DNA of 64,000 nt from Clostridia bacterium (lineage in GTDB: Bacteria > Bacillota > Clostridia > Oscillospirales > CAG-272), in NCBI GenBank assembly GCA_017942005.1, contig JAGAVJ010000039.1:95591-159590 (forward strand), written 5' to 3'. How positions within the stretch are numbered: position 1 is the first letter of the stretch; every line of letters begins with the position of its first letter. Shown piece by piece: positions 4,503-58,466 of this stretch. The translations under genes and the position numbers were made by a program. The notes beneath the pieces are model-generated. The model searched no databases. It was not told the DNA's origin and saw only the letters and a program-made list of their open reading frames with translations.

Positions 4503-4848
4503 GGTGTTTGAATTTTCCTTTCACAGGATATTTCATTAACATATTATAACAAATTATTTTGTCTCACAATTGAATGAAATATGAATTTAATTTGACTATC
4601 AGAAAAGTTATTTTCACTTACTTCCGCTGCTTTTGTGAATGTTGACGAAACAATGACAGCAACCCGTTTCATTGCAGCAATTTTTTGTGATTTTTGATCA
4701 TAAATATAGTAAAAAGCAAATGCGGTATCGGCAATACCGCTTGCGGCAATCGGGTCATCGCATGAACATGGCACCATATGGCTCCCGCATGCAGCAGCCA
4801 GAGAAAAATTCTGTTATCAGGTATGCTGACACGGTTTTCAAATAAGCC

Positions 4849-7427: not shown

Positions 7428-7605
7428 GCATCATTCATTATAACATTATACCCGAAAATCTCTGTTTTGTCAATGGGATATGCAAATTTTCATAAAGAAA
7501 TTTCCAGGATTTTTACTGTTTTTTTCAAACACTTTGCTATATTATATGTGTTTAACGATACACAAAGGCAATCATTCCCGATACATACCGTATGCCGCGG
7601 ACCTT

Positions 7606-7837
7606 TTATGACCATGACTTCGCGCAAGCGAAGTTTTCCTATCTAATGTGGAATTGTGACGTAAGTCACAAAACACGGGGGTGTTGCAAGTTTTCAACTT
7701 GCAACAGCCCGGGATCACGAAGTGATCCGAATTCGGCGTTTTCACAGTGGATTTTGACAAAAATCCGCTGTGAAATTTCGCTTGGAAAAGCGAAAAGGCG
7801 AATTTTATAGGATGGCGCATGTTAATGCGACAGCCCG
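7606..7837 (-). repeat. Hairpin-array leader repeat, long copy (family B)
   Basis: The reverse complement aligns along its length with 29634-29840, and its 3' part aligns with 24458-24532 and 21315-21405. It starts right after the stop codon at 7838 and ends in ATGGTCATAA (7615-7606). Confidence 0.85.
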
Positions 7838-8716
7838 TTACTTTTCGTATTTTGCAATCTTTTCTTTCAGGAAGCTGACAGCCATACCGATATCTGCCGC
7901 CGGGTCTTCACCAACCTCACGCTCAATGGTCAGATATCCCTTATAGCCAATATCGTCCAAGGCAGCAAGATAACGGTCAAAGTCAACGTTTCCTTGTCCA
8001 AGCGGCACTTCCTGGAAATACTCCCAAATCGGCATATCGCGCAGATCACCGCCGTCGCCGCCGTCTGCAAAGAAGCCATAAATTTTGTGGCGGTCGCAGG
8101 GACGGTGGTTGACCCCATCCTTTGCATGCGTGTGTACGATGTAGTCGCGCAGGGTGTAAACGGCTTTGACCGGATCGTCCTGTGTGACCATGACAAGGTT
8201 TGCAGGGTCTAAATTGACCTTGACGCCGCGCGCAGACAGACCATCCAAAAACTCCTTGAGCATGTCTGCCTTTTCAGGACCGGTTTCCACCGCAAAGGAG
8301 GCACCGACCGAATCTGCGTATTCTGCCAGCTGATTGCATGCGCTCTGCATAATATGGTAGGTATCGTTCTTTTCATCCGGAACCACACCGATATGTGTGG
8401 TCACTACTTTTGTACCAAGCTCCAGCGCCAAATCCACAATCTGCTTGGATTTTTCCACCTTGATTTTATTGTCCTCTGCAATCTGGAAGCCATGGCCGCC
8501 AAGATCGCCGCACAGTGCGGAAACCTGCAAACCGTTTGCATCCAGAATGGACTTCTTCTCAGCAATCTGTTCCTTTGTCAGGTTCCAAGGCGCCATTTCA
8601 CCGTCAACGGCATAAATCTGTACACCCTGTGCACCGAGCACACGTGCTTTTTCGATATTTTCACGGAAGGTACCGAGCAGGGAATCTGCCATGATACCAA
8701 TAGAGAATCTGTTCAT
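7838..8716 (-). CDS. Sugar phosphate isomerase/epimerase (xylose-isomerase-like TIM barrel)
   Basis: Family-typical pattern (HIGVVPDE, ETGPE, VNLDPANL, HAKDG, LTIERE). Start chosen at MNRFSIG, which has AAAGGAAAGGA upstream. Confidence 0.7.
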   Translation of the reverse strand: MNRFSIGIMADSLLGTFRENIEKARVLGAQGVQIYAVDGEMAPWNLTKEQIAEKKSILDANGLQVSALCGDLGGHGFQIAEDNKIKVEKSKQIVDLALELGTKVVTTHIGVVPDEKNDTYHIMQSACNQLAEYADSVGASFAVETGPEKADMLKEFLDGLSARGVKVNLDPANLVMVTQDDPVKAVYTLRDYIVHTHAKDGVNHRPCDRHKIYGFFADGGDGGDLRDMPIWEYFQEVPLGQGNVDFDRYLAALDDIGYKGYLTIEREVGEDPAADIGMAVSFLKEKIAKYEK

Positions 8717-8844
8717 GTTAAAACGTTCCTTTCCTTTGTCAATCATAAATTGATCGTAAATTATAAGTGATATAATTATAACACGGACCAAAGGGTATTG
8801 TCAAGAAATGCATGAAATCTTTTGCACAAATTCCCCATCCCCTG

Positions 8845-13463: not shown

Positions 13464-15680
13464 ATGGCACTGTTTGATCACGCACGCTGGCTCTGGGATC
13501 CAGCATACAGCAAAGCGGAAAACGTTTACATGGATTTTGATGAGCACTTTACCGTAAAATCCAAAGCAAAAGCCTATACGATGTATATCAGCGCAGATGC
13601 AAACTACGCAGTATATGTCAACGGCAATCTGATTTCATTCGGTCAGTATGCCGATTATGAAACCTACAAGGTGTATGATACCCTAAATTTGACGGATGCC
13701 ATCAAGGAAGGAGAAAATGACATCCGTGTGACGGTGCACGGCCGCGGACATAATTTCTCCACATACCGCATCGGTCAGCCGGGTGTGATTTATGAGCTTT
13801 ATGCCGATGACAATCTTTTTGTGCTTTCTTCGACTGAAACCAAAATGGCGCTCAATCCGTGCTACAAAAACGGCGCTGTGGAAATCGTGACAGGCCAGCT
13901 TGGCTTTTCTTATCACTATGACGCCACAAAGGAAGGCGCAAACGATGCCGCCTTTAAAAATGCACAGGTTGTGGAAAAGCCAAAGCCTGCATATCCGCGT
14001 CCCATCAAAAAGCTCGTCGTCGGAGAGAATCAGCCTGCGCTCCTCTTTGCGCAGGGACTCTTTACCGACTGCCGCACAGCAAACCTGAACATCGCGCAGA
14101 AATTGCAGTATGCATTCCTTTCCGCAAGAGAACAGTCTCTGCTTTGCGGTCACGGTGAAAATCTGAATTTCACAGGGGATACCGGTATCACCTTCCATTG
14201 CGACCACTGCGACAACAGTGCAGACGGTATGTATCTCACCCTTGATCTTGGCGTGGAATCTGCCGGCGTATTCTCGATTGACATTGACGTTCCAAAGGAA
14301 ACCGAAATTCTCATCGGCTGGGGGGAACATCTCGATGATCTGCGTCCCCGCGCATGGGTCGGCCGCTGCTTTGCACTGCGCTACAAGGCAAAGGCAGGAC
14401 GCAATACCTTTGTGGGACCGTTTCTGCGTCTCGGTCTGCGGTATATGCAGGTGCATATTTACGCAGAACGTGCCACTGTCTATTATGCCGGCATCAAACC
14501 GACCGATTATCCGCTTGACCATACACCATACTTCCAGTGCGCAGACCATCTGCACAATAAGATTTATGAAGTCTGTGTCAGAACCCTTGAAAAATGCATG
14601 CATGAGCATTATGAAGACTGCCCCTGGAGAGAACAGTCTCTGTATTCCATGGACAGCCGCAACCAGATGCTGTGCGGCTATTATACCTTCGGTGAAACGG
14701 AATTTGCAAAGGCGTCTCTCCGCTTAATGGCGCTTTCCCTGCGTGAGGACGGTATGCTGGAGCTTTGCTCCCCGGCTGTGGTTTCCATCACCATTCCATC
14801 GTTTACCGCGATTTTTGTCACACAATTGGAAGAATACCTGCGGTATTCCGGCGATCTTTCCTTTATCGAAGAAATGATGCCAACCGCACGTGCCATCGTA
14901 AAGGCATTCACTGCACAGCTGAACAATGAAGAAAAACTGTTAAAATGCCGTGCAGAGGGCATCTACTGGAACTTCTATGAGTGGCAGTCCGGTCTGGACG
15001 GCGCCATCGGCTCTTCAATGCCTGAGGAGGAACGCACCTACGATGCGCCGATGAACGCGTTCTTCTCCATGGCACTGCGCGCCATTGCAAAGCTGGAAGA
15101 AGCTGTAGGCCAGACAGACGCCGCAGCAGACTATCTTGCGCAGAAGAAAGCGCTTGACGAAAACATGGACCGTCTGTTCTGGGATCGTGAACATCAGGCC
15201 TATGCGACCTATGTCAAACGCGGTGAGCGTTACCACTATGCAGAGCTGACCAATTCGCTGATTGTCTATGCGGATGCATGCCCTGAAAACAAGCAGGACG
15301 CCGTTATGGAAGCGCTGGTTTCCAAAACACTGCTGCCGGTCACACTCAGCCACTCGATCTATAAATACGAAGTGCTGCTCCGCAATCCTGCCAAGTATGC
15401 GCATTGGGTCTTTGACGAGATTGCTGACGTCTGGGGCAAAATGCTGTACAATAATGCAACCACCTTCTATGAAACCGAGGAAGGTTCCCGTGCCTTTGGC
15501 AGTGCAGGTTCTCTCTGCCATGGCTGGTCTGCAATTCCTGCCTATCTGTATTTTGCATATGTGCTTGGTCTGAAGCCAACCGGAAACGGATATGCTTCCT
15601 ATGAAATCAAACCGCTGGATACCGGTATCTACGCAGCAGAAGGTCTTGCAGTCACACCTGCCGGCAACATCAATCTTTAA
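13464..15680 (+). CDS. GH78-like alpha-L-rhamnosidase family glycoside hydrolase
   Basis: 738 aa. Has a bacterial rhamnosidase-type N-terminal beta domain followed by a six-hairpin domain (YEDCPWREQ, WNFYEW, CHGWSAIPAYL). Confidence 0.6.
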   Translation: MALFDHARWLWDPAYSKAENVYMDFDEHFTVKSKAKAYTMYISADANYAVYVNGNLISFGQYADYETYKVYDTLNLTDAIKEGENDIRVTVHGRGHNFSTYRIGQPGVIYELYADDNLFVLSSTETKMALNPCYKNGAVEIVTGQLGFSYHYDATKEGANDAAFKNAQVVEKPKPAYPRPIKKLVVGENQPALLFAQGLFTDCRTANLNIAQKLQYAFLSAREQSLLCGHGENLNFTGDTGITFHCDHCDNSADGMYLTLDLGVESAGVFSIDIDVPKETEILIGWGEHLDDLRPRAWVGRCFALRYKAKAGRNTFVGPFLRLGLRYMQVHIYAERATVYYAGIKPTDYPLDHTPYFQCADHLHNKIYEVCVRTLEKCMHEHYEDCPWREQSLYSMDSRNQMLCGYYTFGETEFAKASLRLMALSLREDGMLELCSPAVVSITIPSFTAIFVTQLEEYLRYSGDLSFIEEMMPTARAIVKAFTAQLNNEEKLLKCRAEGIYWNFYEWQSGLDGAIGSSMPEEERTYDAPMNAFFSMALRAIAKLEEAVGQTDAAADYLAQKKALDENMDRLFWDREHQAYATYVKRGERYHYAELTNSLIVYADACPENKQDAVMEALVSKTLLPVTLSHSIYKYEVLLRNPAKYAHWVFDEIADVWGKMLYNNATTFYETEEGSRAFGSAGSLCHGWSAIPAYLYFAYVLGLKPTGNGYASYEIKPLDTGIYAAEGLAVTPAGNINL

Positions 15681-15691
15681 TTTGAATATTT

Positions 15692-15765
15692 GGGGATTCT
15701 CCCAAAACCCCAATTCAAGGAACTTTTCGAGAAAAGTTCCTTGAAAATCTTCAAAAGCTTTTTTT
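15692..15765 (+). repeat. Family A (hairpin + mirror tract) elements, two units
   Basis: GGGGA-TTC-TCCC-AAAA-CCCC, then AAGGAACTTTTCGAGAAAAGTTCCTT-GAAAA-TCTTC-AAAAGCTT. Lies directly after the GH78-like stop codon. Confidence 0.6.
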
Positions 15766-15787
15766 CGACAAAAGGAGTTCGATTCCT

Positions 15788-18602: not shown

Positions 18603-19718
18603 ATGGAAATCCTGTACGAAAACCTGCTCCAAATGGATTGGCGTTATCTCGTCATGTGGGCAATCGGCGGACTGCTGATTTACCTCGCCATCAAAAAGGA
18701 CATGGAACCAACATTACTGCTGCCCATCGGATTCGGAACCATTCTTGTCAATATTCCCAATTCCGGTGCCATCACACAGCCGCAGGCGACAGAACCCGGC
18801 GCACTGACAACCCTGTTTGACGCAGGGATTGCAAACGAGCTGTTCCCGCTGATTTTATTCATCGGCATCGGCGCAATGATAGACTTCGGCCCGCTGCTCT
18901 CCAATCCCAAGCTGATGATCTTCGGCGCAGCCGCACAATTCGGTATCTTTTTCACGCTGTGTCTTGCGTCCATGTTTTTTGATATCAACGATGCAGCTTC
19001 TATCGCCATCATCGGTGCAGCAGACGGTCCGACCTCCATTGTCGTCGCCAATATGCTCAACTCAAACTATTTAGGTCCGATCATGGTAGCGGCGTATTCC
19101 TATATGGCGCTGGTACCGATTATTCAGCCGCCGGTCATCAAGCTGCTCACCACCAAAAAAGAGCGCATGATCCGCATGGAATATGAGGGCAAAGAAGTCT
19201 CCAAAGCGACAAAAATTCTGTTCCCCATCATCATTACCATCGTGGCAGGCATCGTTGCCCCATCCTCTGTTTCTCTTATTGGCTTCCTTATGTTTGGTAA
19301 CCTCATTCGCGAATGCGGTGTGCTCAACTCCCTATCCGACACTGCACAGAAGGTACTTGCAAATCTCGTCACCATTTTTCTTGGCATCACCATTGCTTCC
19401 CAGATGACGGTGGACAAGTTCCTCAATACCGACACGCTTCTGATTCTCGGTCTTGGTCTGTTCGCATTCATCTTTGATACGGCAGGCGGCGTGCTGTTTG
19501 CAAAGTTCCTCAATCTGTTCTTAAAGAAAAAGGTCAATCCAATGATTGGCGCGGCAGGCATTTCCGCATTCCCGATGTCGGGCAGAATCGTACACAAAAT
19601 GGGACTGAAGGAAGATCCGCAAAACTTCCTGCTCATGCATTCCATCGGTGTCAACGTGTCCGGACAGATTGCATCTGTCATCGCGGGCGGTTTGATTTTG
19701 AACTTCTTTATGGCATAA
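18603..19718 (+). CDS. Na+-translocating decarboxylase beta subunit (OadB/GcdB/MmdB family)
   Basis: 371-aa polytopic protein with family-typical segments (IGAADGPT, MIGAAGISAFPMS). Confidence 0.85.
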   Translation: MEILYENLLQMDWRYLVMWAIGGLLIYLAIKKDMEPTLLLPIGFGTILVNIPNSGAITQPQATEPGALTTLFDAGIANELFPLILFIGIGAMIDFGPLLSNPKLMIFGAAAQFGIFFTLCLASMFFDINDAASIAIIGAADGPTSIVVANMLNSNYLGPIMVAAYSYMALVPIIQPPVIKLLTTKKERMIRMEYEGKEVSKATKILFPIIITIVAGIVAPSSVSLIGFLMFGNLIRECGVLNSLSDTAQKVLANLVTIFLGITIASQMTVDKFLNTDTLLILGLGLFAFIFDTAGGVLFAKFLNLFLKKKVNPMIGAAGISAFPMSGRIVHKMGLKEDPQNFLLMHSIGVNVSGQIASVIAGGLILNFFMA

Positions 19719-19892: not shown

Positions 19893-19968
19893 GTTCGACA
19901 GATTTATGTATGGGGAAAACTTTTTTGAAAAAAAGTTTTCCCCAAACCTCTTTCAAAAAACTTTAAAC
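19890..19968 (+). repeat. Family A element (TIR-like GTAAGTTCGAC + hairpin + mirror tract)
   Basis: GGGGAAAACTTTTTTGAAAAAAAGTTTTCCCC-AAA-CCTCTTTC-AAAAAACTTTAAAC. It overlaps the stop codon of the oadG-like gene. Confidence 0.8.
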
Positions 19969-20030: not shown

Positions 20031-20064
20031 GGGCTGCTGCAAGTTTTCAACTTGCAGCAGCCCC
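20031..20064. terminator. Family C palindrome / bidirectional terminator
   Basis: GGGCTGCTGCAAGTTTTCAACTTGCAGCAGCCCC followed by TTTTG. Lies between convergent genes. Confidence 0.7.
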
Positions 20065-20973: not shown

Positions 20974-21314
20974 ATGATGTACCGTATTTTCACGGTTATT
21001 CCCGTTTATGCCTATATAATAACATATTTATGTCTGTTTGTCAAGTGGATTCCGTGAAAAGAAAGAGGTTTTCGTGAATATTCAGGCATTGACGTTCCAT
21101 ACCGATATCGATAGAACCGTATATTTTGAAATCTAATAAACTTTTCAAAATTCATTCATCTTTTCTTTATATTTATCCTGTATAATAAGATATTATCTAA
21201 AATTCAGCGGTACCATTCCGCAGAAAGGACTCCATTTTTCTGCCGCCCAATTTGCAGGACAATAAGTCTGAAAAATAAATTTTTCAGGAGAAACCATTTT
21301 AATGATTTCTCGTA

Positions 21315-21405
21315 CCGTGATTTTGTGACTTAACCGCCTGCGGGCGGTCACAACTCCACAATGAAAGGAGATAACTTTCACTTTCGTGAAAGTTATGGTC
21401 ATAAC
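21315..21405 (+). repeat. Family B leader repeat, 3' part
   Basis: CCGTGATTTTGTGAC[TTAACCGCCTGCGGGCG]GTCACAACTCCACAATGAAAGGAG-ATAACTTTCAC/GTGAAAGTTAT-GGTCATAAC. Confidence 0.8.
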
Positions 21406-23017
21406 TATAAAAAATATGACAAACAAGAAAAAGAATGACGATCCGATCCACTCAAGGATGCGGAAATATGTCAACCGGCACATGAGCAATCTTTTCAAAC
21501 GCACAGTGTATATTCTCCTGTTTGCAACCATACAAATTGCTCTGCTCGTGGTAAGTTTTACCTATCTCGGAAACCTGACGCCGTATTTCTGGACATTCTG
21601 CATGCTCATTTCCTTGATTCAAGCCATGCATATTTTAAATAAAAACAACAACCCCGCCTATAAAATCGCATGGCTGATTCCCATTTTGGTCGCGCCAATC
21701 TTTGGGGGGCTATTGTATTTGATGTTCGGCTCCAAGCGTGTCAATAAACGTCTGACCACGATCACAAACGATATTCAGGAAAAATATGCGGAATTTTCTC
21801 CTTGCGTTGTCCCCTCCATTGAAAAAAAGATCGCAGAAGAAGCCCCGCGCAATGTTGCTTTGCAGTCCTCCTACATTTCAAAGGCATCCGGCTGTCTTCC
21901 CTACGGCAGCACGCAGACCAAATATTTTCCGTCCGGGGAAGAACTGTTTCCGGTCATGTATGAAGCGCTGAAACAGGCAAAACAGTATATTTTCATCGAA
22001 TATTTTATCATTGAAGAAGGACTTTTCTGGGAATCGATCCTCGATATCCTCACAGAAAAGGTAAAAGAAGGCGTGGAAGTGCGTGTCATGTACGACGACT
22101 TCGGGTCTATGCTGACGCTTCCCCTCAATTATGATAAAATGCTGCGGGAACGCGGCATCAAGTCCCATGTATTCAATCCGTTTAATACCGTACTGCATCC
22201 CCGCCCCAATAACCGTGACCACAGAAAAATTACAGTCATCGACGGAAAAACAGCTTTTGTCGGCGGTATCAATTTAGCGGACGAATACATCAATACCTTT
22301 GAAAAGTATGGATATTGGAAGGACACCGCCCTGCAAATGACCGGTGATGCTGCTTTTGGCTGTACCATACAGTTTTTGTGCGTATGGGATGCGGATACCC
22401 ATGAAAAAACGGATTTTACAAAGTATACGCCGCGCCCATCCGATAAAGAAGAACCCGCCCAGTCCACTCTTAGCATCGTACAGCCATATACCGATATTCC
22501 AATGGACAGTGAGCAGGTCGGGGAATCGGTGTATTTCCAGATGGTCACACGTGCGGAAAAGTATATTTACATCACGACCCCCTATTTGATCATCGACTAT
22601 GAAATGCAGACCGCGCTGCAAATCGCCGCAAAAAGCGGTGTGGATGTCCGCATTATCACCCCGCACATTCCCGATAAAAAAATGGTATTTTTCTTAACGC
22701 GTTCCTACTATAAACCGCTGATGGACGCAGGTGTGAAAATTTACGAATTCACCCCCGGATTTATCCATGCAAAGTCCATGGTGTCCGACGACCGCTTTGC
22801 CGTAGTCGGTTCTATCAACCTCGACTACCGTTCTCTGTATTTACACCTTGAGAATGCCGTATGGATGTACAATACGGAAGTCATTACCGACATCCGCAAC
22901 GATTTTCTTGCAACGCAGGAAAAAAGTCAGCTTGTCACAGAGGAGCTGCTCGGCCGCCTGACCCTGCCAAAACGGATGTGGCTGTCTATCCTCCGCACCT
23001 TCTCGCCGTTATTGTAG
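21395..23017 (+). CDS. cls: Cardiolipin synthase
   Basis: Two PLD HKD motifs (HRKITVIDGKTAFVGGINL and HAKSMVSDDRFAVVGSINLD) and N-terminal TM helices. Start is ambiguous (GTG 21386, ATG 21395, ATG 21416). Confidence 0.9.
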   Translation: MVITIKNMTNKKKNDDPIHSRMRKYVNRHMSNLFKRTVYILLFATIQIALLVVSFTYLGNLTPYFWTFCMLISLIQAMHILNKNNNPAYKIAWLIPILVAPIFGGLLYLMFGSKRVNKRLTTITNDIQEKYAEFSPCVVPSIEKKIAEEAPRNVALQSSYISKASGCLPYGSTQTKYFPSGEELFPVMYEALKQAKQYIFIEYFIIEEGLFWESILDILTEKVKEGVEVRVMYDDFGSMLTLPLNYDKMLRERGIKSHVFNPFNTVLHPRPNNRDHRKITVIDGKTAFVGGINLADEYINTFEKYGYWKDTALQMTGDAAFGCTIQFLCVWDADTHEKTDFTKYTPRPSDKEEPAQSTLSIVQPYTDIPMDSEQVGESVYFQMVTRAEKYIYITTPYLIIDYEMQTALQIAAKSGVDVRIITPHIPDKKMVFFLTRSYYKPLMDAGVKIYEFTPGFIHAKSMVSDDRFAVVGSINLDYRSLYLHLENAVWMYNTEVITDIRNDFLATQEKSQLVTEELLGRLTLPKRMWLSILRTFSPLL

Positions 23018-23080
23018 TTTTATGAGGAGATGCTTTTTGAAAAAAGCACCTCCTCAAACTCCTCCGCAAAAACTTTCATA
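23018..23080 (+). repeat. Family A element (GAGGAG-type arms)
   Basis: TTTATG-GAGGAGATGCTTTTTGAAAAAAGCACCTCCTC-AAA-CTCCTCC-GCAAAAACTTTCATA. Lies immediately after the cls stop codon. Confidence 0.8.
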
Positions 23081-23130
23081 TAAAGTTATTTGAATGGGGT
23101 TTCTGGCTGTACGGCGTATCCTTATTACAG

Positions 23131-24209: not shown

Positions 24210-24242
24210 GGACTGTTGCAAGTTGAAAACATGCAACAGCCC
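24210..24242. repeat. Family C palindrome located in the 5' region of the AraC gene
   Basis: GGACTGTTGCAAGTTGAAAACATGCAACAGCCC (one mismatch in the stem). Confidence 0.7.
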
Positions 24243-24434
24243 GTTTCACGGTCTCCCTCCAGCTTGATTGATTCAAATTATATCATACATCCTTGCCGCT
24301 GTCAAGCAATCTATGCAAAAAAACAAAAAACCACGCCATGTAAAAACAAATATATGCCATTGTAATTCACAGAAAAGTATGATATAATCTAAAATATATG
24401 AAACAACCATGGAATACGATAGAAAGGAATTCAA

Positions 24435-24532
24435 GTTTGAAAGATAAATCTTTCAAACCGTGTTTTGTGACTTACGTCACAATTCCACATTAGAAAGGAA
24501 AACTTCGCTTACGCGAAGTTATGGTGGTAAAG
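24435..24532 (+). repeat. Family B leader repeat, 3' part
   Basis: GTTTGAAAGATAAATCTTTCAAAC-CGTGTTTTGTGACTTACGTCACAATTCCACATTAGAAAGGAAA-ACTTCGCTTACGCGAAGT-TATGGTGGTAAAG. Nearly identical to the reverse complement of 7606-7683. Confidence 0.85.
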
Positions 24533-26002
24533 ATGAAACGTTTTTCCTGCATTTTACTGACAGTATTGCTGATGTGCGCTTCCTGCGGAGAAGCTGCAAA
24601 AAGCGATACAACGGACACCGCGCAAACCGGTACCAACACAGATACGGAGCCTGCCGCAACAGAAGCACCGATTCCGGATCATTTAGATGAATTGGGTGAA
24701 AAGGATTTTGAAGGCAGAGTGTTCACCATTCTTGATGCAAACGACCACCCCGATATGCATGTCAACATGCCGGGGACAGAAGAAAACGGCGACATCATCA
24801 ACGATGCGCTGTACCAGCGTGATGCTGCCATTGAAGAACGTTACAACATTGATCTGCAATATATCCAAATAGAAGGTGCAAGCACCGGTACAACCAAGCT
24901 GAAAAATGCAGCCCTGACCGATGACAGTACCTATTCCATCTGTATTTCCACTCTGCTTGGCGGAACGCTCGGCACCATTGCCCTGGAAGGCGTACTTGCC
25001 AATCTGCTTGAGGTACCGTACCTGTCACTTGATCAGAACTGGTGGAGCAGCCTGATGTATGAAAGCCTTCGCTTTGACAACAAAATGTATTACACCACAG
25101 GCGATATCTCTCCCACCATGTACCAGATGCCGTCTTGCCTTTACTTAAACAAATCCCTTGCAGAAAACTACGATATTCAGGCAGATTTCCCTCAGCTGGT
25201 GCGTGACGGAAAATGGACATGGGACGAAATGATTTCCGCCTGCAAAAATTTGACGGTCGATGTCAACGGAGACAACAAAATGGACACCTGGGACGACTTC
25301 TTCGGCTTTGTACACAACGAGATGAGCAGCCTTGTCACAAATGCATATGTTGTCAGCGCCGGAATTGATCTTTCCACCATTTCCGAGGACGGCAGTCAGA
25401 TCAAAGTTGATCTGCTCAACGAACACACAAGCAATGCCATTGATAAATTCAAGGAGCTGGTCACACCCAATATCAAAATTAGAGAATTCAATGATATCAT
25501 CACCAAAACCTTTGAAGAGGACCGCGCCCTGTTTTTGCACCACTATGTGGAAAGCGCTTCCAACTATCTGCGCGATATGAAGAGCGACTATCTGATTCTG
25601 CCGCTGCCAAAGTATGATGAAGCACAGGAAAGCTACCGTTCCTTCGCCAACGCATGGGCAGATGCATTTGTCGCAATTCCGATTACAAGCGATCCTGAAT
25701 TCACCGGGTTCATTACGGAAGCGCTCGGCTACTATTCCTATAAAAACGTCCGTCCGCAGACCTATGAAATCATGTATAAGCAGAAGACGACGCGCGATGA
25801 GGACAGTGCAGAAATGCTTGATGTCATCTTCAATACCGTGTATGTGGACTTCAACTGTATCTATGACTTTGGCGGAACCGCATCGGTGCTCTGCAACGTC
25901 ATCAACGGAAAAGGAGAGCTTGCATCGTCTCTCACCAAAATTGAATCGAAAATCGATACCGCTCTTGAAAAATTCATCACAGGCTGGAAGGCAGAAAAAT
26001 AA
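24521..26002 (+). CDS. LplA-like extracellular solute-binding lipoprotein (paralog 2 of 5)
   Basis: Lipobox in MKRFSCILLTVLLMCASC, reading from the ATG at 24533. Contains the motif LILPLPKYDEAQESY. ATGGTG at 24521 is in frame. Confidence 0.7.
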   Translation: MVVKMKRFSCILLTVLLMCASCGEAAKSDTTDTAQTGTNTDTEPAATEAPIPDHLDELGEKDFEGRVFTILDANDHPDMHVNMPGTEENGDIINDALYQRDAAIEERYNIDLQYIQIEGASTGTTKLKNAALTDDSTYSICISTLLGGTLGTIALEGVLANLLEVPYLSLDQNWWSSLMYESLRFDNKMYYTTGDISPTMYQMPSCLYLNKSLAENYDIQADFPQLVRDGKWTWDEMISACKNLTVDVNGDNKMDTWDDFFGFVHNEMSSLVTNAYVVSAGIDLSTISEDGSQIKVDLLNEHTSNAIDKFKELVTPNIKIREFNDIITKTFEEDRALFLHHYVESASNYLRDMKSDYLILPLPKYDEAQESYRSFANAWADAFVAIPITSDPEFTGFITEALGYYSYKNVRPQTYEIMYKQKTTRDEDSAEMLDVIFNTVYVDFNCIYDFGGTASVLCNVINGKGELASSLTKIESKIDTALEKFITGWKAEK

Positions 26003-26043: not shown

Positions 26044-26087
26044 GGGCTGCCGCAAGTTTTCAACTTGCAGCAGCCCCTCTTTTATTT
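26044..26087 (+). terminator. Family C palindrome / intrinsic terminator
   Basis: GGGCTGCCGCAAGTTTTCAACTTGCAGCAGCCCC followed by TCTTTTATTT. Confidence 0.75.
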
Positions 26088-29523: not shown

Positions 29524-29633
29524 GATGATATCTTCCTTTCCTGCAAGTTTTCTACACTAACAGTATACCACATCCCACCTGCAAAAAAAGGCGGAATATG
29601 GGAGTGCATAAAAGTCTGAAAAAATTTTTCAAA

Positions 29634-29840
29634 GGGCTGTCGCATTAACATGCTCCATCCTATAAAATTCGCCTTTTCGCTATGTATTTTTAACAAAATC
29701 CATAGCGAAAACGCCGAATTCGGATCACTTCGTGATCCCCGGGCTGTGATTTTGTGACTTTCGTTGCTTGAAAAGCAACGATGTCCGCCTGCGGTATAAC
29801 CGCGTGCGGGCGCGTCACAACTCCACAATGAGAGGAAATG
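29634..29840 (+). repeat. Hairpin-array leader repeat, long copy (family B)
   Basis: Aligns with the reverse complement of 7606-7837. The GTGAC..GTCAC hairpin (29754-29818) carries a 55-nt loop containing further hairpins. Ends in CCACAATGAGAGGAAATG. Confidence 0.85.
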
Positions 29841-29904
29841 AAAAATGCACAAGTCCGCAAACATGCAGACCTGTGCAAAAAATATGAGGTAAGTATTGTA
29901 AATT

Positions 29905-32900
29905 TTATTCTTTTCCTGCGCTTGCAGCTTCATAGGTACAGAGAATTTGCTCGATTCCCGAAAGCAGACTCATCCCGCGCGGAAGCCTTGCCTGTATACA
30001 CGGCTTTTGTCCTGCGGAAAGCGTCAGCCGGATCGGCAGCATCGCAGGACCTCCCACAGCAGATGATTTACCGTTTCCGATAGTGCCTTTGCCTCCTGCC
30101 GCCGCATTGGCAGCAGCATTCCCTGCCTTTGCCATTGCAGCAGCACGTGCCATGGGCGTTGCATACTTCTGCGGCTGGGCGGTTTGAGCTGCGGCAGTCG
30201 GTACCCGCCTATTTGGGGATTGTGCGGTATGCGTCGTTTGTGTACTGCGTGCGGTATTGCCTTGTACAGTCTCCTTTGGCAGCGCATCTGCTGTCAGCAT
30301 TTCCGCACAGGCTGCCCATGCGGCGCCGTCAAATACAACAGGAAACAATAAAATACTCTGCTGCCGTGCTTCAATACGGGCAATGTGCTGTGCCGATGCC
30401 ATTGCACGCAGATACGAAATTGCAACCAGATTCTGTGCCGCCTTTGGCGGTGTACCGAATCGGTCGGTCAGCTCGTCGAGAATATCCCGCTTGTCTTCTT
30501 CTGTCTCCACTGCCGCAATCTTTTTATAAAGATCAATGCGCTGTGCGGCAGATTTCACATACTTCTCGGGCAGATAGGCGTCAAGGGAGATATCAATGAC
30601 AGACTCTGTCTTCGGCGTGATATGTTCTCCGCGCTCCTCTAAAATCGCTTCATTCAACAGCTTGATATATAAATCATATCCGACGCTTTCCATATGCCCG
30701 TGCTGTTCCGACCCCAGTAAATTACCGGCGCCGCGAATCTCCAAATCACGCATGGCAATTTTAAAGCCGGAGCCGAATTCCGTATATTCTCGGATTGCCT
30801 GAAGCCGTTTTGACGCAATTTCCGTCAGTGTTTTTCCCTTTGGATAGGTAAAATACGCATAGGCACGGCGGGAAGAGCGTCCGATGCGTCCGCGAATCTG
30901 GTGCAGCTGAGAAAGTCCCATGCGGTCTGCATGTTCAATCACTAAGGTATTGGCATTCGGGATATCGATACCGGTTTCGATAATGGTTGTGCTGACTAAA
31001 ATATCAACGTCTCCGTTTAATAACTGCTGCCAGATCGCAGAGATTTCTTCCTTATCCATCTTCCCATGTGCAATGGCAACGCTGGCGTCCGGTGCAATAC
31101 CCGAGACCCGTGCGGCACAAGCGTCGATATCTTCCACCCGGTTGTGAAGCCAGAAAATCTGACCGCCGCGCCGCAGTTCCTTTTTCAACGCTTCTCCGAG
31201 AATCTGCTCATCGTACTCAAGGACATAGGACTGTACCGGCACACGGTCGCCCGGCGCTTCGTCCAATACACTCATATCGCGAATGCCGGACATCGCCATA
31301 TTCAGCGTGCGCGGAATTGGCGTTGCAGACAGCATCAGACAGTCGACATTTTCCGTCAGCGCCTTCAATTTTTCCTTTGCAGCAACGCCAAAGCGCTGTT
31401 CCTCGTCAATAATGACAAGACCGAGATCACGAAACGCCACATCCTTGGACACAAGGCGATGCGTTCCGACAATGATATCAATTTCTCCGCGCCGGAGCCG
31501 CCGGATGATCTCCTCCTGCTGCTTTGGCGTGCGGAAACGGGAAAGAATTTCCGCATGCACCGGAAGTCCGCGAAAACGGGACAGAATGGTCTGATAATGC
31601 TGCATGGCAAGAATGGTTGTCGGCACAAGAATGGCAACCTGCTTGCCGCACTCTATCGCCTTCATCGCCGCACGCAATGCAACCTCCGTTTTTCCGTAAC
31701 CGACATCGCCGCACAGCAGTCTGTCCATCGGCACTGCCCGCTGCATATCCGCTTTGATTTCCGCAATGGCATTTTCCTGACTGTCCGTCTCCTCATAGGG
31801 AAATAAGGATTCAAAGGTACGCTGCATGTCGTCGTCCGCAGCAAACGCATAACCGGGTTTTCTGAGACGCGCCGCATAGAGTGCAATCAGCTCCTTTGCC
31901 ATGTTCTTGGCGGCAGCCTTGACACGGGCTTTTGTCTTTGTCCATTCCGTACCGCCCATTTTCGACAGCTTGACAATGCCGTCCTCGCCGCGCGCACCAA
32001 TGTATTTGGAGATCATATCAAGCTGTTCACACGGCAGAAACAGTGCATCCTCACCCGCATACTGGATTTTCACATAATCGTGGCTGGTGCCGTCAATTCC
32101 TGTGATGGTCTGGATGCCGCGATACTGTCCAATTCCGTGGTTGACATGCACTACGTAGTCTCCGACCGTCAAATCCGCATAAGAAAGGATCCGTTCCGCT
32201 GCCGATTTTTTCTTTTTGTTCTTTTTTGCGCGTCCGGCAATCGCTTTTGCGTATGCTGTATGGGTCGGAAACGTGGACAGTACCGCGAAACGGCTTTCCG
32301 GCAGCTCATAGCCGACCGCATCCATTCCGCAGACAATGACCGGTACACCGGGGACCAGATCGGTAAGCGGAAAGTCATGTGCCTCCGACAGTGACGTCGT
32401 AATGCCGTCGTCAAACAGGCTGTCGCGCAAATTTTTAGCGGAAAACGGATTTTCGGACAGCAAAAGCAGACGGTATCCCCCGGCGATATAACCGCGGACA
32501 TCTTCGCACAGCGTCTCATAGCTTTCCGCATAGGAGATAAGCTGCTTTGAGCGGAACGTAAAAATTCCGGAAAGCTTTCCGACCGACGAGGATGCAAAGG
32601 AATCGCAGAGCAGCGTCGGCGCCTGCTTTATGGCATAGTCAAAGTCCGACTGCCACTTTGTATATTCCGCATACTTTGCTGCAATGGTGTTTGCTTCAAG
32701 GAGGGTGGTAATCGCTTGCCGGATATGCCACTCGGAGGAAGAAAGCCGCTCTGCAATTTTCGCGGTGTCCAATACCAGAACTGGAGAGGTGATGCGGTGC
32801 GTTTCGTCATCCATGAAATAATCCAGCAAACACTGTTTTTCCGGATAAAGATAGGTGATATATTTGTCAAGGAAACTCGGCTCGACGCCGCCGTCAAGGA

Positions 32901-33726: not shown

Positions 33727-33748
33727 GCGTACTCCTTTTCTAATCTTT

Positions 33749-33812
33749 TGAGGCGTTGCCTCAAACTCTATCAAGGGAACTTTTCGAGAAAAGTTCCCTT
33801 GAAACCCTCAAA
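33749..33812 (+). repeat. Family A elements, two units
   Basis: TGAGGC-GTT-GCCTCA-AA-CTCT, then GGGAACTTTTCGAGAAAAGTTCCC-TTGAAA-CCCTC-AAAAGCTT. Confidence 0.6.
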
Positions 33813-33847
33813 AGCTTCTTATCGGTATATAGGTTTATATACATTTC

Positions 33848-34554: not shown

Positions 34555-34892
34555 ATCCGTAGATTCTCCATTCTGTAAAAACAACAGAACCGGCGGAAAT
34601 TTCCCTGTACCCCTCGTACATCAAACTGTCCTGACAGGGTACCGAAAAAACTTCCGCTGATTCTAAACCATATGTATTATAGTATCATTATACCGCATTC
34701 CAGGAAAAAAAGCAAGGGCAGAATACAGAATCTCCAAAAAATTTTTATCTGCCGCACGGCTGCACTTGCTTTGTTCATACGAATATGATAAAATAATGTG
34801 AGTTCAATGAGAAAGTTTTACCAGCCAAGGCATCCATCAAAATCTTAGAAAAATAAATTGACAAAAAATAGTATAAATACGATACATTTTTC

Positions 34893-34996
34893 AGTTTAAA
34901 GTTTTTTGAAAGGGGTTTGGGGAAAAGCTTTTTTTTAAAAAAGTTTTCCCCATAAACCGCCCTCGCGTTAAAATAGGATATCACGAAATCGAAGCT
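34893..34996 (-). repeat. Family A element
   Basis: Minus strand reads TTTATG-GGGGAAAACTTTTTTAAAAAAAAGCTTTTCCCC-AAA-CCCCTTTC-AAAAAACTTTAAAC. A degenerate AGCTTCGAT end lies at 34984-34996. Confidence 0.75.
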
Positions 34997-39330: not shown

Positions 39331-39389
39331 TTGTGTAGCTCTCGCTACAATTTCACATAGAAAGGAAATCACTTTTACATTTTGTCAAT

Positions 39390-40901
39390 GTGATGATCAT
39401 GATTATGAAACATACACAAAAACAAGGAATTTTGGCGCTGCTTGCGCTGTTATGCGCCGCATCCGTATTCTCATCCTGCGGTTCCCCCTCCGATAAAAAG
39501 GACGATAAAACACCGAACACAGAAAATCATCCGGCCACAGACGCCACGACAGAAGCGCCTGCACCAGAACGTATCAAGGCAAACCTTCCGGACAAAGACT
39601 TCGGCGGAGAAACCTTCACCTTCTACGGCCGCATTTATGAGGGAGAATGGACCGCAAACGATATCTTTTCCCATACGGAAGACGGCGAGCTGATCAACGA
39701 TGCGCTGTATAACCGTACCACGTACATTGAAGAAACTTACAACGTCAAGCTTGACGCCATTGAAAGCGGTGAGGTCACCGTTACCTCTAAATTAAAAACA
39801 CTTCTTACTGCAGGCGACACCTCATTCCAGGCAATCTGCTGCGACGTATATGACGCAGGCGCACTCTCCGTTGAGGGTATGCTGCTTGATTTGAACCACG
39901 TAGAAAATCTTGATCTTTCTGCGGATTGGTGGGCACAGCAGACCAATGCATCCCTTTCCATTGCAAATAAGCAGTTTTACGTGACCGGTGATATCAGCAT
40001 CGTTGACAACCGCTCTACACGTGTCCTGTTCTTTAACAAGGATATCATCCGTTCTCTTGATCTTGAAAACCCCTATGATCTGGTCGACAACAATCAATGG
40101 ACCATCGAAAAATTTATCGAACTGTCTGAGGCTGCACTGTACGATGTAAACGGCGACGGCACCTATGACCGTCAGACGGATCAGTTTGGCGTTATGGCAC
40201 AGAAGCAGTTTGGCTCTGTTTTGTATTTCGCCTCCGGAAATCTTTTGACCGGAAAGGATCAAAACGACATTCCCTATGCGCTTTGCAGCACAGAAAAAGC
40301 AATCAGCGTTATGACCGGCATTTCCGATAAAATCTCCGGCTTGAAATCCATATCGCTCAGCGACGATAATACGTTTAAGAACGATTATCCTGACAATATT
40401 GTTTACTTTATGGACGGTCGCGCCCTGTTCGCACCGGAAGTTTTGACACATATTGCAACCATGCGCAACTGCACCGTCGACATCGGCATTCTCCCTCCGC
40501 CGAAATATGAGGCTTCACAGGATGCATACTATTGCTTTGCAGACGGTTGGTGCGTCAATGTATACTCCATTCCTTCCACCAATGTCAATTCCGCCGATGC
40601 CGGCTTTATTCTCGAAGCAATGGCAGCGGACTCTAAAAACAATCTGACGCCTGCCTATTTCAATGTGGTTCTGACCGATAAATATGCACGTGACGAACAG
40701 TCTGTCCGTATGCTGGACCTGATTTTGAATTCTCAGGTTATGGACAACGCAAATATTTTCTCATGGGCATCTATTGAGTCCACCGTTGCAAACGCCATTT
40801 ACAACGGCGGCGCAATCGCTTCTACGATTGAAAAGAAAGTATCTACGCTCGAAAAAATGATCGATAAGACCGTTTCCAAAATTGAAGCAGTGGAAAATTG
40901 A
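39390..40901 (+). CDS. LplA-like extracellular solute-binding lipoprotein (paralog 4 of 5)
   Basis: Lipobox ASVFSSC and motif GILPPPKYEASQDAY. Start is ambiguous (GTG 39390, ATG 39393, ATG 39405). Confidence 0.7.
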   Translation: MMIMIMKHTQKQGILALLALLCAASVFSSCGSPSDKKDDKTPNTENHPATDATTEAPAPERIKANLPDKDFGGETFTFYGRIYEGEWTANDIFSHTEDGELINDALYNRTTYIEETYNVKLDAIESGEVTVTSKLKTLLTAGDTSFQAICCDVYDAGALSVEGMLLDLNHVENLDLSADWWAQQTNASLSIANKQFYVTGDISIVDNRSTRVLFFNKDIIRSLDLENPYDLVDNNQWTIEKFIELSEAALYDVNGDGTYDRQTDQFGVMAQKQFGSVLYFASGNLLTGKDQNDIPYALCSTEKAISVMTGISDKISGLKSISLSDDNTFKNDYPDNIVYFMDGRALFAPEVLTHIATMRNCTVDIGILPPPKYEASQDAYYCFADGWCVNVYSIPSTNVNSADAGFILEAMAADSKNNLTPAYFNVVLTDKYARDEQSVRMLDLILNSQVMDNANIFSWASIESTVANAIYNGGAIASTIEKKVSTLEKMIDKTVSKIEAVEN

Positions 40902-40920
40902 TTCAAGATAGAATGAAACA

Positions 40921-40952
40921 GAAAGGAAGCTTTCGCATTTGCGAACGCTATG
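40921..40952 (+). promoter_or_regulatory. Split SD-hairpin-ATGGTC start module
   Basis: GAAAGGAA-GCTTTCGCATTTGCGAACGC-TATGGTC. Confidence 0.45.
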
Positions 40953-42422
40953 GTCGAATATATGAAGTGTAAATCTCTCCTCCCATTGGCATTGCTTCTT
41001 CTGAGCGCGTCTATCGTAACCGCGTGCAGTGATACAAAATCCGATGACACCAAAAAGGACGCTCCCGAAACAGTCAACTCTACAGAAACAGAAGCAGTCA
41101 CGGAAGCATATCAGGGTCCCATCCTGCCTGAGGCGAATTTCAACGGTGAAACCTTCTCGTTTTACAACAGCTGTATTTGTGACTGGATGGCAATCAACCG
41201 TGTTACCGCCGATGAGGAAACCGGCGACACCTTAAACGACGCAGTGTATCGGCGCAATTTAAAGGTCGCTGAACAATACAACGTCACGTTTTCAGAATAT
41301 CAGAACGGTGACAATATTTTAAAGACCGCCATTAACTTTATTTCCTCCGGTGATACGACACATTCCATCTATCTTTTGCGTGAGGATCCCGCTTTCAACA
41401 TTGTTTTGCAAAACGGCGCTGTCGATTTTGCCAATATTCCATATCTGAATCTCAATAGAGAATGGTGGCTGCAATCCACGCTTGAAAATCTGTCGTTTGA
41501 TCACCGCGTATTCTTCGGTACATCCACCTTTGATACCACCCACTATGACGGTACCTCCGCACTGTATTTCAATAAATCGCTGATTGATTCCTTTGATTTG
41601 GAAAACCCCTATGAGCTGGTCAAAAGCGGTAAATGGACCGTTGCCAAAATGGACGAAATGGCACGCACGGTTGCATCCGATATCAACGGTGATGGAAAAT
41701 GGGATGAAAACGATCGTTTCGGTATGACCTCCCATGAAATTCTCATCACACGGTTTTTAATGGCAGGTATGAACGCACCGCTGTCCCTCTCCAAGGATGA
41801 TAACGATTTGTTATATTTCGATATGCTATCCGACTACTACATCGACCGCATGACGCTTGCTGCCAATGTCATTTCCCAGAAGGACGGCTTCTACCATACC
41901 AAGGCAAATTCCGGCAACCACGGCGGTTATGAATACTTTTTAGCCGGCAATGTTTTATTCTACAATGAAACGCTGGGCAATGCGCAGAAGCTGCGTCAGA
42001 TGACGCTGGACTTTGGCATTCTGCCTGCGCCAAAGTATGATGAAAGCCAGGAAGGCTACCATAACGACGTCATCGAATCTTACTTCATGCTGGTTCCCTC
42101 AACCAATCCGGACCTTGAGCGCACCGGTATTTTAATGGAAGCGCTTGCATATGCATCTCTTGATACCGTTGTTCCCTCCGCGTATGACGGCATGCTGCAG
42201 GGTATCGTTTCCCGTGATACCGACTCAGAAGAAATGCTCGATATCATCTTTGATACACTGACCTTCTGTCATCCAGTCGCGCAGTCGTACACCTTAACAA
42301 ACCTCTACATGCGTATCTTTACAGGTAAGACGGATTTTGCTTCCTTCTTAACCAAATCTGAATCGAAGGTGGAAGCTGCCATCGAGGCTGCTATTACCGC
42401 ATACCGCGAAAACAACGATTGA
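40950..42422 (+). CDS. LplA-like extracellular solute-binding lipoprotein (paralog 5 of 5)
   Basis: Lipobox SASIVTAC and motif GILPAPKYDESQEGY. ATGGTC at 40950 is in frame with ATG at 40962. Confidence 0.7.
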   Translation: MVEYMKCKSLLPLALLLLSASIVTACSDTKSDDTKKDAPETVNSTETEAVTEAYQGPILPEANFNGETFSFYNSCICDWMAINRVTADEETGDTLNDAVYRRNLKVAEQYNVTFSEYQNGDNILKTAINFISSGDTTHSIYLLREDPAFNIVLQNGAVDFANIPYLNLNREWWLQSTLENLSFDHRVFFGTSTFDTTHYDGTSALYFNKSLIDSFDLENPYELVKSGKWTVAKMDEMARTVASDINGDGKWDENDRFGMTSHEILITRFLMAGMNAPLSLSKDDNDLLYFDMLSDYYIDRMTLAANVISQKDGFYHTKANSGNHGGYEYFLAGNVLFYNETLGNAQKLRQMTLDFGILPAPKYDESQEGYHNDVIESYFMLVPSTNPDLERTGILMEALAYASLDTVVPSAYDGMLQGIVSRDTDSEEMLDIIFDTLTFCHPVAQSYTLTNLYMRIFTGKTDFASFLTKSESKVEAAIEAAITAYRENND

Positions 42423-42549
42423 TCGCCGCACGACGGGCTGCCGCATTCACATGACTCCATACGGCTGTCGTACACGAAAGCCTGTAAAATTCGATGGTTC
42501 TGGTATATAATACCAAAAACCCCTTCTGTATCCAGCATTTCCAGTATTC

Positions 42550-46119: not shown

Positions 46120-46198
46120 CATGAGTTCGATGAATTTATGAGGGAAACTTTTTAAAAAAAAGATTTTCCCCAAACACCTTTCAAAAAACTTTAAACGG
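46119..46198 (+). repeat. Family A element with TIR-like ACATGAGTTCGAT end
   Basis: TTTATG-AGGGAAACTTTTTAAAAAAAAGATTTTCCCC-AAACA-CCTTTC-AAAAAACTTTAAAC. Starts in the stop codon of the SLH protein gene. Confidence 0.75.
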
Positions 46199-46225
46199 AA
46201 CCAAATAAACAAGCTGTATCCATAC

Positions 46226-58289: not shown

Positions 58290-58341
58290 ATTTATCCTCT
58301 CATTATGGAATTGTGATGAAGTCACAAAATCACGGTACAAT

Positions 58342-58363
58342 GGGCTGTCGCATGCAACAGCCC
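58342..58363. repeat. Short family C palindrome
   Basis: GGGCTGTCGCATGCAACAGCCC. Confidence 0.6.
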
Positions 58364-58466
58364 ATTCTGAAAAATTTAATTTCAGACTTAAGAATTTTTA
58401 TCTGTCCCCGGTATTGTGTATCGTTTTACATTGAATGTTTACGATTCTGTCTGAAGCACTGTGCAG

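Follow-up and report, generated by a model that had tools for sequence, protein, structure and literature searches.

What kind of element places two dense arrays of hairpins beside different genes of one genome, nearly identical in some parts and clearly different in others? The question is raised by a 64-kb stretch of an uncultured Clostridia contig, hereafter the window, which contains array A (29634-29840, +) and array B (7606-7837, -). An earlier note on this DNA had described the pair as a modular ~210-230-bp hairpin-array repeat, with compensatory swapping of stems and with hairpins nested inside hairpin loops. Our analysis indicates that A and B probably belong to a lineage-specific family of short palindromic repeats of intergenic DNA, similar to the bacterial interspersed mosaic elements (BIMEs) and to BOX elements, and that its arrays grow and shrink by whole hairpins. 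The arrays are repeated, mosaic, capable of forming hairpins, restricted to one lineage and polymorphic between strains; they have no coding potential and belong to no known RNA family.

Several near-identical metagenome contigs carry the same locus, and their sample labels suggest ruminant gut. The host is an uncultured spore-forming Clostridia or Ruminococcaceae-like bacterium. Contigs matched through the window proteins carry the same loci in near-identical strains only, and they extend the window by 6.8 kb on its left and 3.5 kb on its right side (L020, L029 and L016 below are metagenome contigs or scaffolds, and L011 is that of a relative).

Two arrays with one shared block

A and B align over 137 columns at 79% identity (BLAST E ~1e-25 within the window). 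The alignment contains blocks in the same order, one of 51 nt at 96% and one of 68 nt at 84%, and a 33-nt segment, GAAAACGCCGAATTCGGATCACTTCGTGATCCC, is identical in the two arrays (33/33). Folding of each strand of each copy was compared with dinucleotide shuffles, giving z-scores of -6.33 and -6.36 for the two strands of A and of -8.42 and -9.86 for those of B. With this E value and with folds 6-10 standard deviations below the shuffles, both the repeat and the density of hairpins are real and far beyond chance. The strings and coordinates previously quoted for the palindromes were all exact on direct check. The features of array A and its flanks are as follows.

29613..29633 (+): M0, an AT-rich hairpin AGTCTGAAAAAATTTTTCAAA, the 5' edge of array A, position exact
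29634..29660 (+): H1*, a decayed terminator-type hairpin GGGCTGTCGCAT-TAAC-ATGCTCCATCC, the head of the first 'linker' of the earlier note
29661..29680 (+): tail TATAAAATTCGCCTTTTCGC, the same in A and B
29666..29720 (+): long imperfect hairpin with outer stem AATTCGCCTTTTCGCTATG/CATAGCGAAAACGCCGAATT, enclosing M2, 82% self-complementary over 56 nt
29678-29707 (+): M2, an ATTTT-TAAC-AAAAT core inside the long hairpin
29707..29739 (+): M3, GAAAACGCCGAATTCGGATCACTTCGTGATCCC, consisting of the CCGAATTCGG palindrome and a GGATCAC-TTC-GTGATCC hairpin, matching 7711-7743 (-)
29744..29839 (+): M4 of A, CTGTGATTTTGTGAC ... GTCACAACTCCACAATGAGAGGAAAT, 53.6 bits with a covariance model of six M4 copies
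29761-29781 and 29785-29812 (+): hairpins nested in the 55-nt loop of this M4, read from the sequence
29846..29877 (-): intrinsic terminator of mfd, flanking array A

Array B, read on the minus strand, is composed in the following way.

7790..7836 (-): H1* (7810-7836) and tail, 96% identical to A over 51 nt
7776-7795 (-): extra hairpin TTTCGCTT-TTCC-AAGCGAAA, in B only, A having one hairpin in place of two
7740-7775 (-): M2 with a different lower stem, TTTCACAGCGGATTTT-TGTC-AAAATCCACTGTGAAA, from folds and direct reading
7711..7743 (-): M3, an exact match to that of A
7678..7710 (-): D2, a terminator-type hairpin GGGCTGTTGCAAGTT-GAA-AACTTGCAACACCCC, present in B and absent from A
7634-7677 (-): M4 of B, 60.9 bits with the M4 covariance model
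7612-7634 (-): M5, leader hairpin ACTTCGC-TTGC-GCGAAGT followed by ATGG

The claim that the arrays align end to end goes too far, as the part specific to the pair is only the run H1*-tail-M2-M3 (29634-29739 in A; 7836-7711 in B). This A/B-specific block of ~106-127 nt comprises H1*, the tail, the ATTTTT..AAAAT hairpin and the CCGAATTCGG/GGATCAC hairpins. Its ATTTTTNNCAAAATC core occurs in the window in A and B only, and no further copies of M3 were found there beyond these two. The long hairpin of A is predicted in both the minimum free energy and the centroid folds, on both strands. The flanking units recur separately, and the M4 of A and that of B are of different subtypes: the nearest relative of the former is the copy upstream of cls (21331-21372, 91%), and M4 and M5 of B together match 24458-24531, where the SBP gene at 24521/24533 has its leader and first codons, with 93% identity over 74 nt. 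Since the other units occur alone elsewhere, A and B are two mosaics sharing one block and not copies of one element.

The two arrays also differ in context. A sits between the mfd terminator and the promoter region of spoIIAA-spoIIAB-sigF, antisense to both mfd and spoIIAA (mfd and spoIIAA/AB were identified by Pfam). B begins one base past the stop of the TIM-barrel gene 7838-8791 (-) and extends to a point upstream of the yceD-rpmF consensus promoter (7473-7445); it is sense to both neighbours. After M4 in A, a Shine-Dalgarno sequence and an ATG serve no gene; this orphan start opens an open reading frame (ORF) of 81 aa (29838-30083, +) or 15 aa (29845-29892, +), antisense into the mfd terminator. 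A 46-aa ORF (MVIKGPRHTV...) follows M5 in B (7483-7623, -). These short ORFs are uncalled in the metagenome contigs and are probably not genes.

The units recur at other loci

Units of the arrays are found, singly or in other combinations, at the following sites.

21265..21372 (+): M0 - hairpin - M4 array with a 17-nt loop, directly upstream of the cardiolipin synthase (cls) gene
24434..24524 (+): M0' - M4 - M5 array, the 5' leader of an SBP lipoprotein gene
58292..58388 (-): M0 - D11 hairpin (GGGCTGTTGCATGCGACAGCCC) - M4 array, located between the genes for glycerate kinase and HAD hydrolase
39331..39407 (+): variant M4 (GTAGC..GCTAC for GTGAC..GTCAC) and variant M5 leader, upstream of a second SBP gene
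42435..42497 (+): diverged H1* - nested D11-like hairpin - tail, just past the stop of the SBP gene 40950-42422
4752..4813 (+): diverged H1* - nested D11-like hairpin - tail, a spacer copy
21315-72, 24458-502, 58335-292 and 39331-69: the M4 units upstream of cls, SBP, HAD and the second SBP gene, respectively

M4, a hairpin that terminates in a Shine-Dalgarno sequence, is thus present in six copies, four of them directly upstream of the start codons of unrelated genes, and its covariance model, run over 100 kb, recovered its six training copies and no others. From the sequence, the start codon of the HAD gene reads as served by the Shine-Dalgarno of its M4. M0 has four copies in the window, besides one in the L016 allele of the A locus; the relatives of the M0 of A lie at 21265-21289 (+), 24434-24457 (+) and 58365-58388 (-). 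Among six copies of H1*, one is a perfect hairpin, GGGCTGGCGCAT-TTAC-ATGCGCCAGCCC, located downstream of a gene in the right-hand extension (L029). The decayed copies other than that of A are at 7810-7836 (-), 42435-42461 (+), 4752-4778 (+) and in an L020 spacer (13829-14087), and diverged tails follow the nested hairpin at 42483-42497 and 4800-4813.

D2, which like D11 is a terminator hairpin of the form GGGCTG...CAGCCC, occurs five times (7678-7710, 20031-20063, 24210-24242, 26044-26076 and 57517-57549), and the copies at 20031, 26044 and 57517 lie between convergent genes. These three, the H1 of L029 and the mfd terminator have the GC-rich stem-loop and the T-run 3' of a gene that define an intrinsic terminator, which the A/B-specific hairpins on the element strand do not have. 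As D2 hairpins at unrelated loci are ~90% identical, terminators here behave as a dispersed repeat. In the window as a whole, repeats common to several intergenic regions are found in 20 of 40 such regions and make up ~20% of intergenic bases, including further families unrelated to A and B.

Differences by whole hairpins

The copies differ mostly by whole hairpins that are present or absent at few sites. At the H1*/tail junction, A and B have no insert, a D11-like hairpin of 21 nt lies at 42462-82 and 4779-99, and L020 has other sequence. Between M0 and M4 nothing intervenes at the SBP gene, one hairpin does at cls and at HAD, and the whole H1*-M3 block does in A. The third site is the loop of M4, for which direct reading confirmed that palindromes are nested between GTGAC and GTCAC: the loop is 4 nt at 7656-7669 and 24467-24480, 17 nt at 21325-21351 and 55 nt at 29754-29818. 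Within the last of these, TGCGG does stand on either side of TATAACCGCG, as part of near-identical 10-mers, CCGCCTGCGG and CCGCGTGCGG, with TATAA between them, and this is a local duplication of a palindromic unit. Nested units other than the A/B block have no consistent flanking duplication.

The compensatory stem swapping proposed for A and B looks different in this light. The comparison involves two sequences (n=2), and the difference is one of blocks, B having the extra TTTCGCTT-TTCC-AAGCGAAA hairpin and a different lower stem. A palindrome that is replaced alters both arms by construction, and therefore the swap is no evidence of compensation at the RNA level; it is whole-unit replacement and not RNA covariation. 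The impression that structure is conserved as sequence is replaced would arise from the gain, loss or exchange of whole hairpins.

Strains and relatives add a further view of this process. A and B are identical in near-identical strains. On the strain contig L016, a D2 hairpin comes after M0 in place of the H1* of the window, and the divergence starts right after GGGCTGT. When L016 1-60 is set against window 29590-29662, the M0 of L016 is three bases longer (AAAAATAAATTTTT versus AAAAAATTTTT), and L016 breaks off inside D2. Independent sequencing runs yielded five Logan contigs that terminate at one and the same base inside H1*, between CCATCCTA and the T that follows it; because they stop there and B shares no word that is long enough, at least one further genomic copy diverges inside H1*. 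Relatives with 71-74% identical SpoIIAA keep mfd beside spoIIAA with spacers of 150-194 nt, compared to 381 nt here, and these spacers contain a plain terminator and a conserved TGTGGTATACT promoter element but no A element. Stepwise insertion of palindromic units, as formerly suggested, is supported in outline, in so far as the arrays are mosaics of singly occurring units, whole hairpins are present or absent, strains differ and relatives lack the element.

Searches for the arrays elsewhere were made in DNA collections that do not include the source genome. A scan of 185,579 GTDB species genomes with the M3 pattern gave one unrelated 25-nt chance match in a high-GC Solirubrobacterales metagenome-assembled genome. 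Zero matches were found in JGI metagenomes to the H1*-tail 22-mer and a gapped M4 pattern, and IMG/VR, scanned for an H1*-tail 19-mer as well as for the M3 pattern, gave zero too. Plasmids and phages searched by BLAST returned nothing, and the literature on a described equivalent in Clostridia gave nothing relevant.

Interpretation of the arrays

The most plausible account of these observations, and one we hold with some confidence, is that of a mosaic repeat family whose arrays grow and shrink by whole hairpins. Hairpins would be gained, lost or exchanged at few junctions, namely the shared GGGCTG 5' arm, the H1*/tail junction, the M0-M4 gap and the M4 loop. A likely route would be through palindromes, by slippage or template switching, or else through recombination among dispersed copies with short junction motifs in common. 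The units may act in cis on any transcript that contains them, D2 and H1 as intrinsic terminators, often bidirectional, and M4 and M5 as modules of the 5' leader and of ribosome binding. For the A/B-specific block the likeliest role is that of a passenger, neutral or selfish, and at most that of an extra terminator or insulator.

Some observations weigh against this account. Only two full copies, A and B, were recovered, the source genome lying outside the searchable collections. Point compensatory changes exist in M0, M4 and D2: the M4 at 39331 has two of seven pairs changed on both sides, both in this one copy, a level that 16 of 500 shuffles attain for the six-copy hairpin; D2 copies have C-G versus T-A at one pair; and in the M0 at 24434 an A>G change is compensated by T>C. 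Pairing has therefore been maintained, and some units are under structural selection and not merely neutral. The A/B block has the direct repeat GGGCTGT (CGGGCTGT in B) on both sides in both copies (29634-29640 and 29741-29747 in A; 7830-7836 and 7704-7710 in B), a pattern seen in n=2 and in a motif that is also a generic hairpin 5' arm. Finally, B without the block and without one of the repeats would be an intact D2 terminator directly after a stop codon, as expected from target duplication by a transposase.

The last two points belong to the main rival explanation, in which the A/B block (~106-127 nt) is a non-autonomous transposable element resembling a miniature inverted-repeat transposable element (MITE), a palindrome-associated transposable element (PATE) or a REPIN, with its enzyme encoded elsewhere, inserting in the GGGCTGT arm of terminators and duplicating a 7-8-nt target. 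The flanking GGGCTGT, the restored D2 in B and the A locus of L016, where D2 continues past the same GGGCTGT like an empty site, together make the best argument for insertion. Moreover, the A element is absent from the spacer of relatives, and insertion sequence (IS) elements that target REP hairpins are already known (Tobes & Pareja 2006, as referred to in PMC3116915). We nevertheless regard such an origin as unlikely. The ends of the block (CGCATTAACATG... and ...CTTCGTGATCCC) are not complementary and there are no terminal inverted repeats, nor are the ends of the whole array (AGTCTGAAA... and ...GAGAGGAAAT) complementary. The two end hairpins are unlike, since GCAT-TAAC-ATGC on the left is unrelated to GGATCAC-TTC-GTGATCC on the right; a PATE would have similar subterminal hairpins at its two ends, and a fixed target of four or five nucleotides at the left end only. 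The GGGCTG motif is the common 5' arm of H1, D2 and D11, with 25 occurrences versus 12.5 expected, mostly in hairpins; and because H1* itself begins with a GGGCTG arm, as in the perfect H1 of L029, the apparent duplication may just as well be a pair of adjacent hairpin units. A lacks the remainder of D2, so that the L016 and window alleles differ by more than one event. Among the window genes (64 kb only) we found no RAYT or IS200/IS605 TnpA domain, which the earlier note had put forward as a possible mobiliser, nor any transposase, and the other nested units are without consistent flanking duplication.

A bolder proposal goes beyond the block and assumes an active, so far undescribed system that moves tiny palindromes into hairpins, be it the terminator stems (GGGCTGT), the loops of repeat hairpins or the P3 stem of the thiamine pyrophosphate (TPP) riboswitch described below. 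It would be a Firmicute counterpart of the nested SDRs of cyanobacteria, in which a single-stranded DNA enzyme yet to be named spreads portable terminators and ribosome-binding leaders. We consider this doubtful.

Still less probable is that A and B are remnants of segmental duplications of gene 5' regions, comprising the leader and first codons, without any repeat-specific process. The 93% identity of the last 74 nt of B to the SBP leader includes the ATGG(T) start, the orphan Shine-Dalgarno and ATG of A would be accounted for, and the paralogous SBP genes 24521, 39390 and 40950 share the plan Shine-Dalgarno - hairpin - ATGGT. On the other hand, the similarity ends within a few bases of the start codon with no coding remnant after it, M4 also precedes the unrelated genes cls and HAD, and the A/B block is beside no gene start. 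Such duplications also leave the nested hairpins and the strain difference at the A locus unexplained.

A structured non-coding RNA or cis-regulatory leader, with hairpins under pairing selection and compensatory stem differences between A and B, had been the other possibility raised in advance, and we judge it very improbable. The predicted folds are very stable, the few compensatory pair changes among the M4, M0 and D2 copies are in its favour, M4 and M5 are sense in the 5' leaders of four genes, and three tetraloops are GNRA on one strand. This last observation is what remains of the claim that many loops are GNRA: three of five tetraloops in B are so on the opposite strand (GTTA, GGAA, GACA, GTAA and GCAA there; TAAC, TTCC, TGTC, TTAC and TTGC on the element strand), the others are not, and the supposed GAAA loops are better read as GAA triloops, which gain one more base pair. 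The GNRA-bearing strand is not the mRNA strand where M4 and M5 precede genes. The arrays have opposite orientations relative to their genes, A antisense and B sense to the surrounding transcription units. The two strands of A fold equally well, and for B the better fold is that of the non-mRNA strand (-106 versus -91 kcal/mol). In the 7740-7795 hairpins of B, a C.A mismatch on the element strand is a G.T wobble on the opposite one. Neither a promoter nor an own terminator was found on the element strand of A. Rfam 15 gave 0 matches in the window at gathering scores, and with thresholds relaxed to E = 10 the hits on A and B were at chance level only (E 0.25-8). An RNA under selection is also difficult to reconcile with an element that is absent from the orthologous spacer of relatives, varies between strains, is known in two full copies, too few to yield usable covariation, and differs between them by block replacement. 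A fixed tertiary fold would not easily accommodate nested inserts of 13-51 nt in one loop.

Other identities can be dismissed briefly. Protein-coding was rejected, as the ORFs over A (161 aa, minus strand) and B (82 aa) are on opposite element strands with frame shifts between the copies; the concatenated six-frame translation of A and B had no match at E <= 10 among 5.8 billion proteins, and no genes are called over either array in the metagenome contig tables. The TGTGA-N6-TCACA of M4 resembles CRP/Rex sites, but a transcription-factor operator does not fit a loop expanded by 13-51 nt in two copies and a stem that covaries in another. A promoter inside M4 has unfit hexamer spacing and would be broken by the nested inserts, an integron attC site would be without RYYYAAC/GTTRRRY cores and without an integrase, and a retron or group II intron would be without a reverse transcriptase.

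If the mosaic repeat reading is true, it adds an uncultured spore-former of the ruminant gut to the bacteria with a lineage-specific, mosaic system of intergenic repeats. Such repeats break short-read assemblies at fixed points, as in the several independent Logan contigs, and create spurious ORFs. They also mimic the covariation of structured RNA, and discovery of non-coding RNA therefore needs repeat-aware filtering. The reuse of near-identical terminator hairpins and of leader hairpins carrying a Shine-Dalgarno at unrelated genes, the growth of arrays by hairpins nesting in hairpin loops and the repeat-like unit in a variable riboswitch stem are points of interest, and the genome could be a useful case for how palindromic units arise and are tolerated.

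Comparison with known repeat systems

The BIMEs of E. coli and Enterobacteria are mosaics of repetitive extragenic palindromic (REP) sequences, also called palindromic units (PU). The arrays described here resemble them as extragenic series of short imperfect palindromes with short conserved linkers, lineage-restricted and varying per locus in the number and combination of units, often located at gene 3' ends or between the genes of operons with the potential to terminate transcription or stabilise mRNA. They differ in having no sequence similarity to BIMEs, in combining several hairpin families instead of one REP with two or three variants, and in that some units (M4/M5) bear a ribosome-binding site and sit in 5' leaders. 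A REP unit is an imperfect palindrome of 20-40 nt, one end of which has a conserved GTAG or CGTC tag (PMC3733652; for REP and REPIN background see also PMC3116915 and PMC3337134). The units here begin with GGGCTG, GGATCAC, TTGTGAC, TCTGAAA or CTTCGC and have no GTAG or CGTC at their ends. A and B are head-to-tail series of different hairpins and contain no inverted pair of the same unit, as a REPIN doublet would. RAYT-associated REPs have a cognate RAYT (Y1 transposase, PF01797) in the genome, usually with the repeats on its flanks; no gene of the 64-kb window has this domain.

The BOX elements of pneumococci (boxA-boxB(n)-boxC), known together with RUP and SPRITE, are likewise from a Firmicute, modular and rich in secondary structure, and the likeness is architectural only. 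BOX is nearly confined to one species and its closest relative and was judged to be parasitic, although it can affect co-transcribed genes (PMC3049150). One BOX element forms a composite with T-box riboswitches (PMC3049150), which is comparable to the 46-nt repeat-like insert in the TPP riboswitch P3 stem in this genome. Unlike BOX, the arrays have no fixed A-B-C order with one tandemly amplified module, and their units are smaller (hairpins of 14-35 nt) and nest in each other's loops.

ERIC (or IRU) is a single 127-bp unit, conserved across enterobacterial genera and transcribed in neighbouring mRNAs in either direction. It is also a long imperfect palindrome with size variants that arise from insertions and deletions at few fixed internal sites, but the arrays here combine several unit families and do not extend beyond one species-level lineage. 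With regard to nesting, a close parallel is the SDR of heterocyst-forming cyanobacteria, reportedly described by Elhai and colleagues in 2008 as tiny palindromes inside other repeats and hairpin loops, with structure kept as length grows. Palindromic units nested in hairpin loops are, by that account, common to both. The SDRs belong to a different phylum, have different sequences and are said to form many near-identical copies with sharp insert boundaries; here a handful of copies is visible, with inconsistent boundaries and duplications.

D2 and H1/D11 are like intrinsic terminators in having GC-rich stems and T-runs after stops or between convergent genes, and unlike ordinary ones in their ~90% identity between unrelated loci. 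The hairpins specific to A and B have no T-runs on the element strand, and the H1* of both arrays is decayed yet copied. Judged by analogy, the arrays work like a BIME/BOX-type mosaic and would be a member of no named family.

Leaders, riboswitch and other repeat families

A recurring leader plan was seen in which AGAAAGGAA is followed by a 6-7-bp hairpin of varying sequence and then by ATGGT (or ATGA), at 24492-24535, 40920-40965, 39358-39410, 7612-7650 (-) and L020 14040-14087. In the three SBP genes of the window (24521/24533, 39390 and 40950) the ATG of the lipoprotein signal peptide comes 6-15 nt later. The leader hairpin may bridge a spacing between Shine-Dalgarno and start that would otherwise be over-long.

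Gene calls near the units show some irregularities. The D2 at 24210-24242 is inside the first codons of an AraC ORF as called, which suggests that the true start is a downstream ATG. The HAD hydrolase (57589-58304) is 228 aa in the window and 233 aa as called on scaffold L029 (10670-11371), suggesting an indel or a start difference between the window strain and the ENA assemblies. A 77-aa ORF without Pfam match (4544-4777, -) is called in metagenome contigs; its 346-nt spacer also holds a diverged H1*, and the end of scaffold_649 falls inside this spacer.

An insert of 46 nt (56739-56785) in the P3 stem brings the TPP riboswitch upstream of thiT (56700-56843, +) down to 50.9 bits, below the Rfam gathering score (54.3). 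Within the window this insert best matches 39360-39407, where an SBP gene has its Shine-Dalgarno - hairpin - ATG leader (E 0.002), with a Smith-Waterman score of 21 compared to <=15 in 2000 shuffles. By its appearance, the insert is a repeat unit that has nested in the stem of a genuine riboswitch. In the relative L011 the TPP riboswitch is compact and scores 67 bits.

A separate and more abundant intergenic family consists of GGGGAAAACTTTTTTGAAAAAAAGTTTTCCCC and AAACCTCTTTCAAAAAACTTTAAAC, often right after stop codons (19901-19968, 23013-23085, 34890-34956, 46129-46200 and 61218-61404), and its stem variants, such as GAGGAGATGC/GCACCTCCTC, preserve pairing. A third family around GGGAACTTTTCGAGAAAAGTTCCC with conserved flanks is found at 15685-15767, 33742-33824 and L029 ~19570-19640. 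The related Ruminococcaceae contig L011 has its own unrelated intergenic element of ~230-280 nt without Rfam match, in three copies within 20 kb (1580-1880, 5690-5970 and 18860-19159) and with long terminal inverted repeats (CCTTCCCTGGTGAGGGAAGG..., GACGGATGAGTCGTT/AACGACTCATCCGTC).

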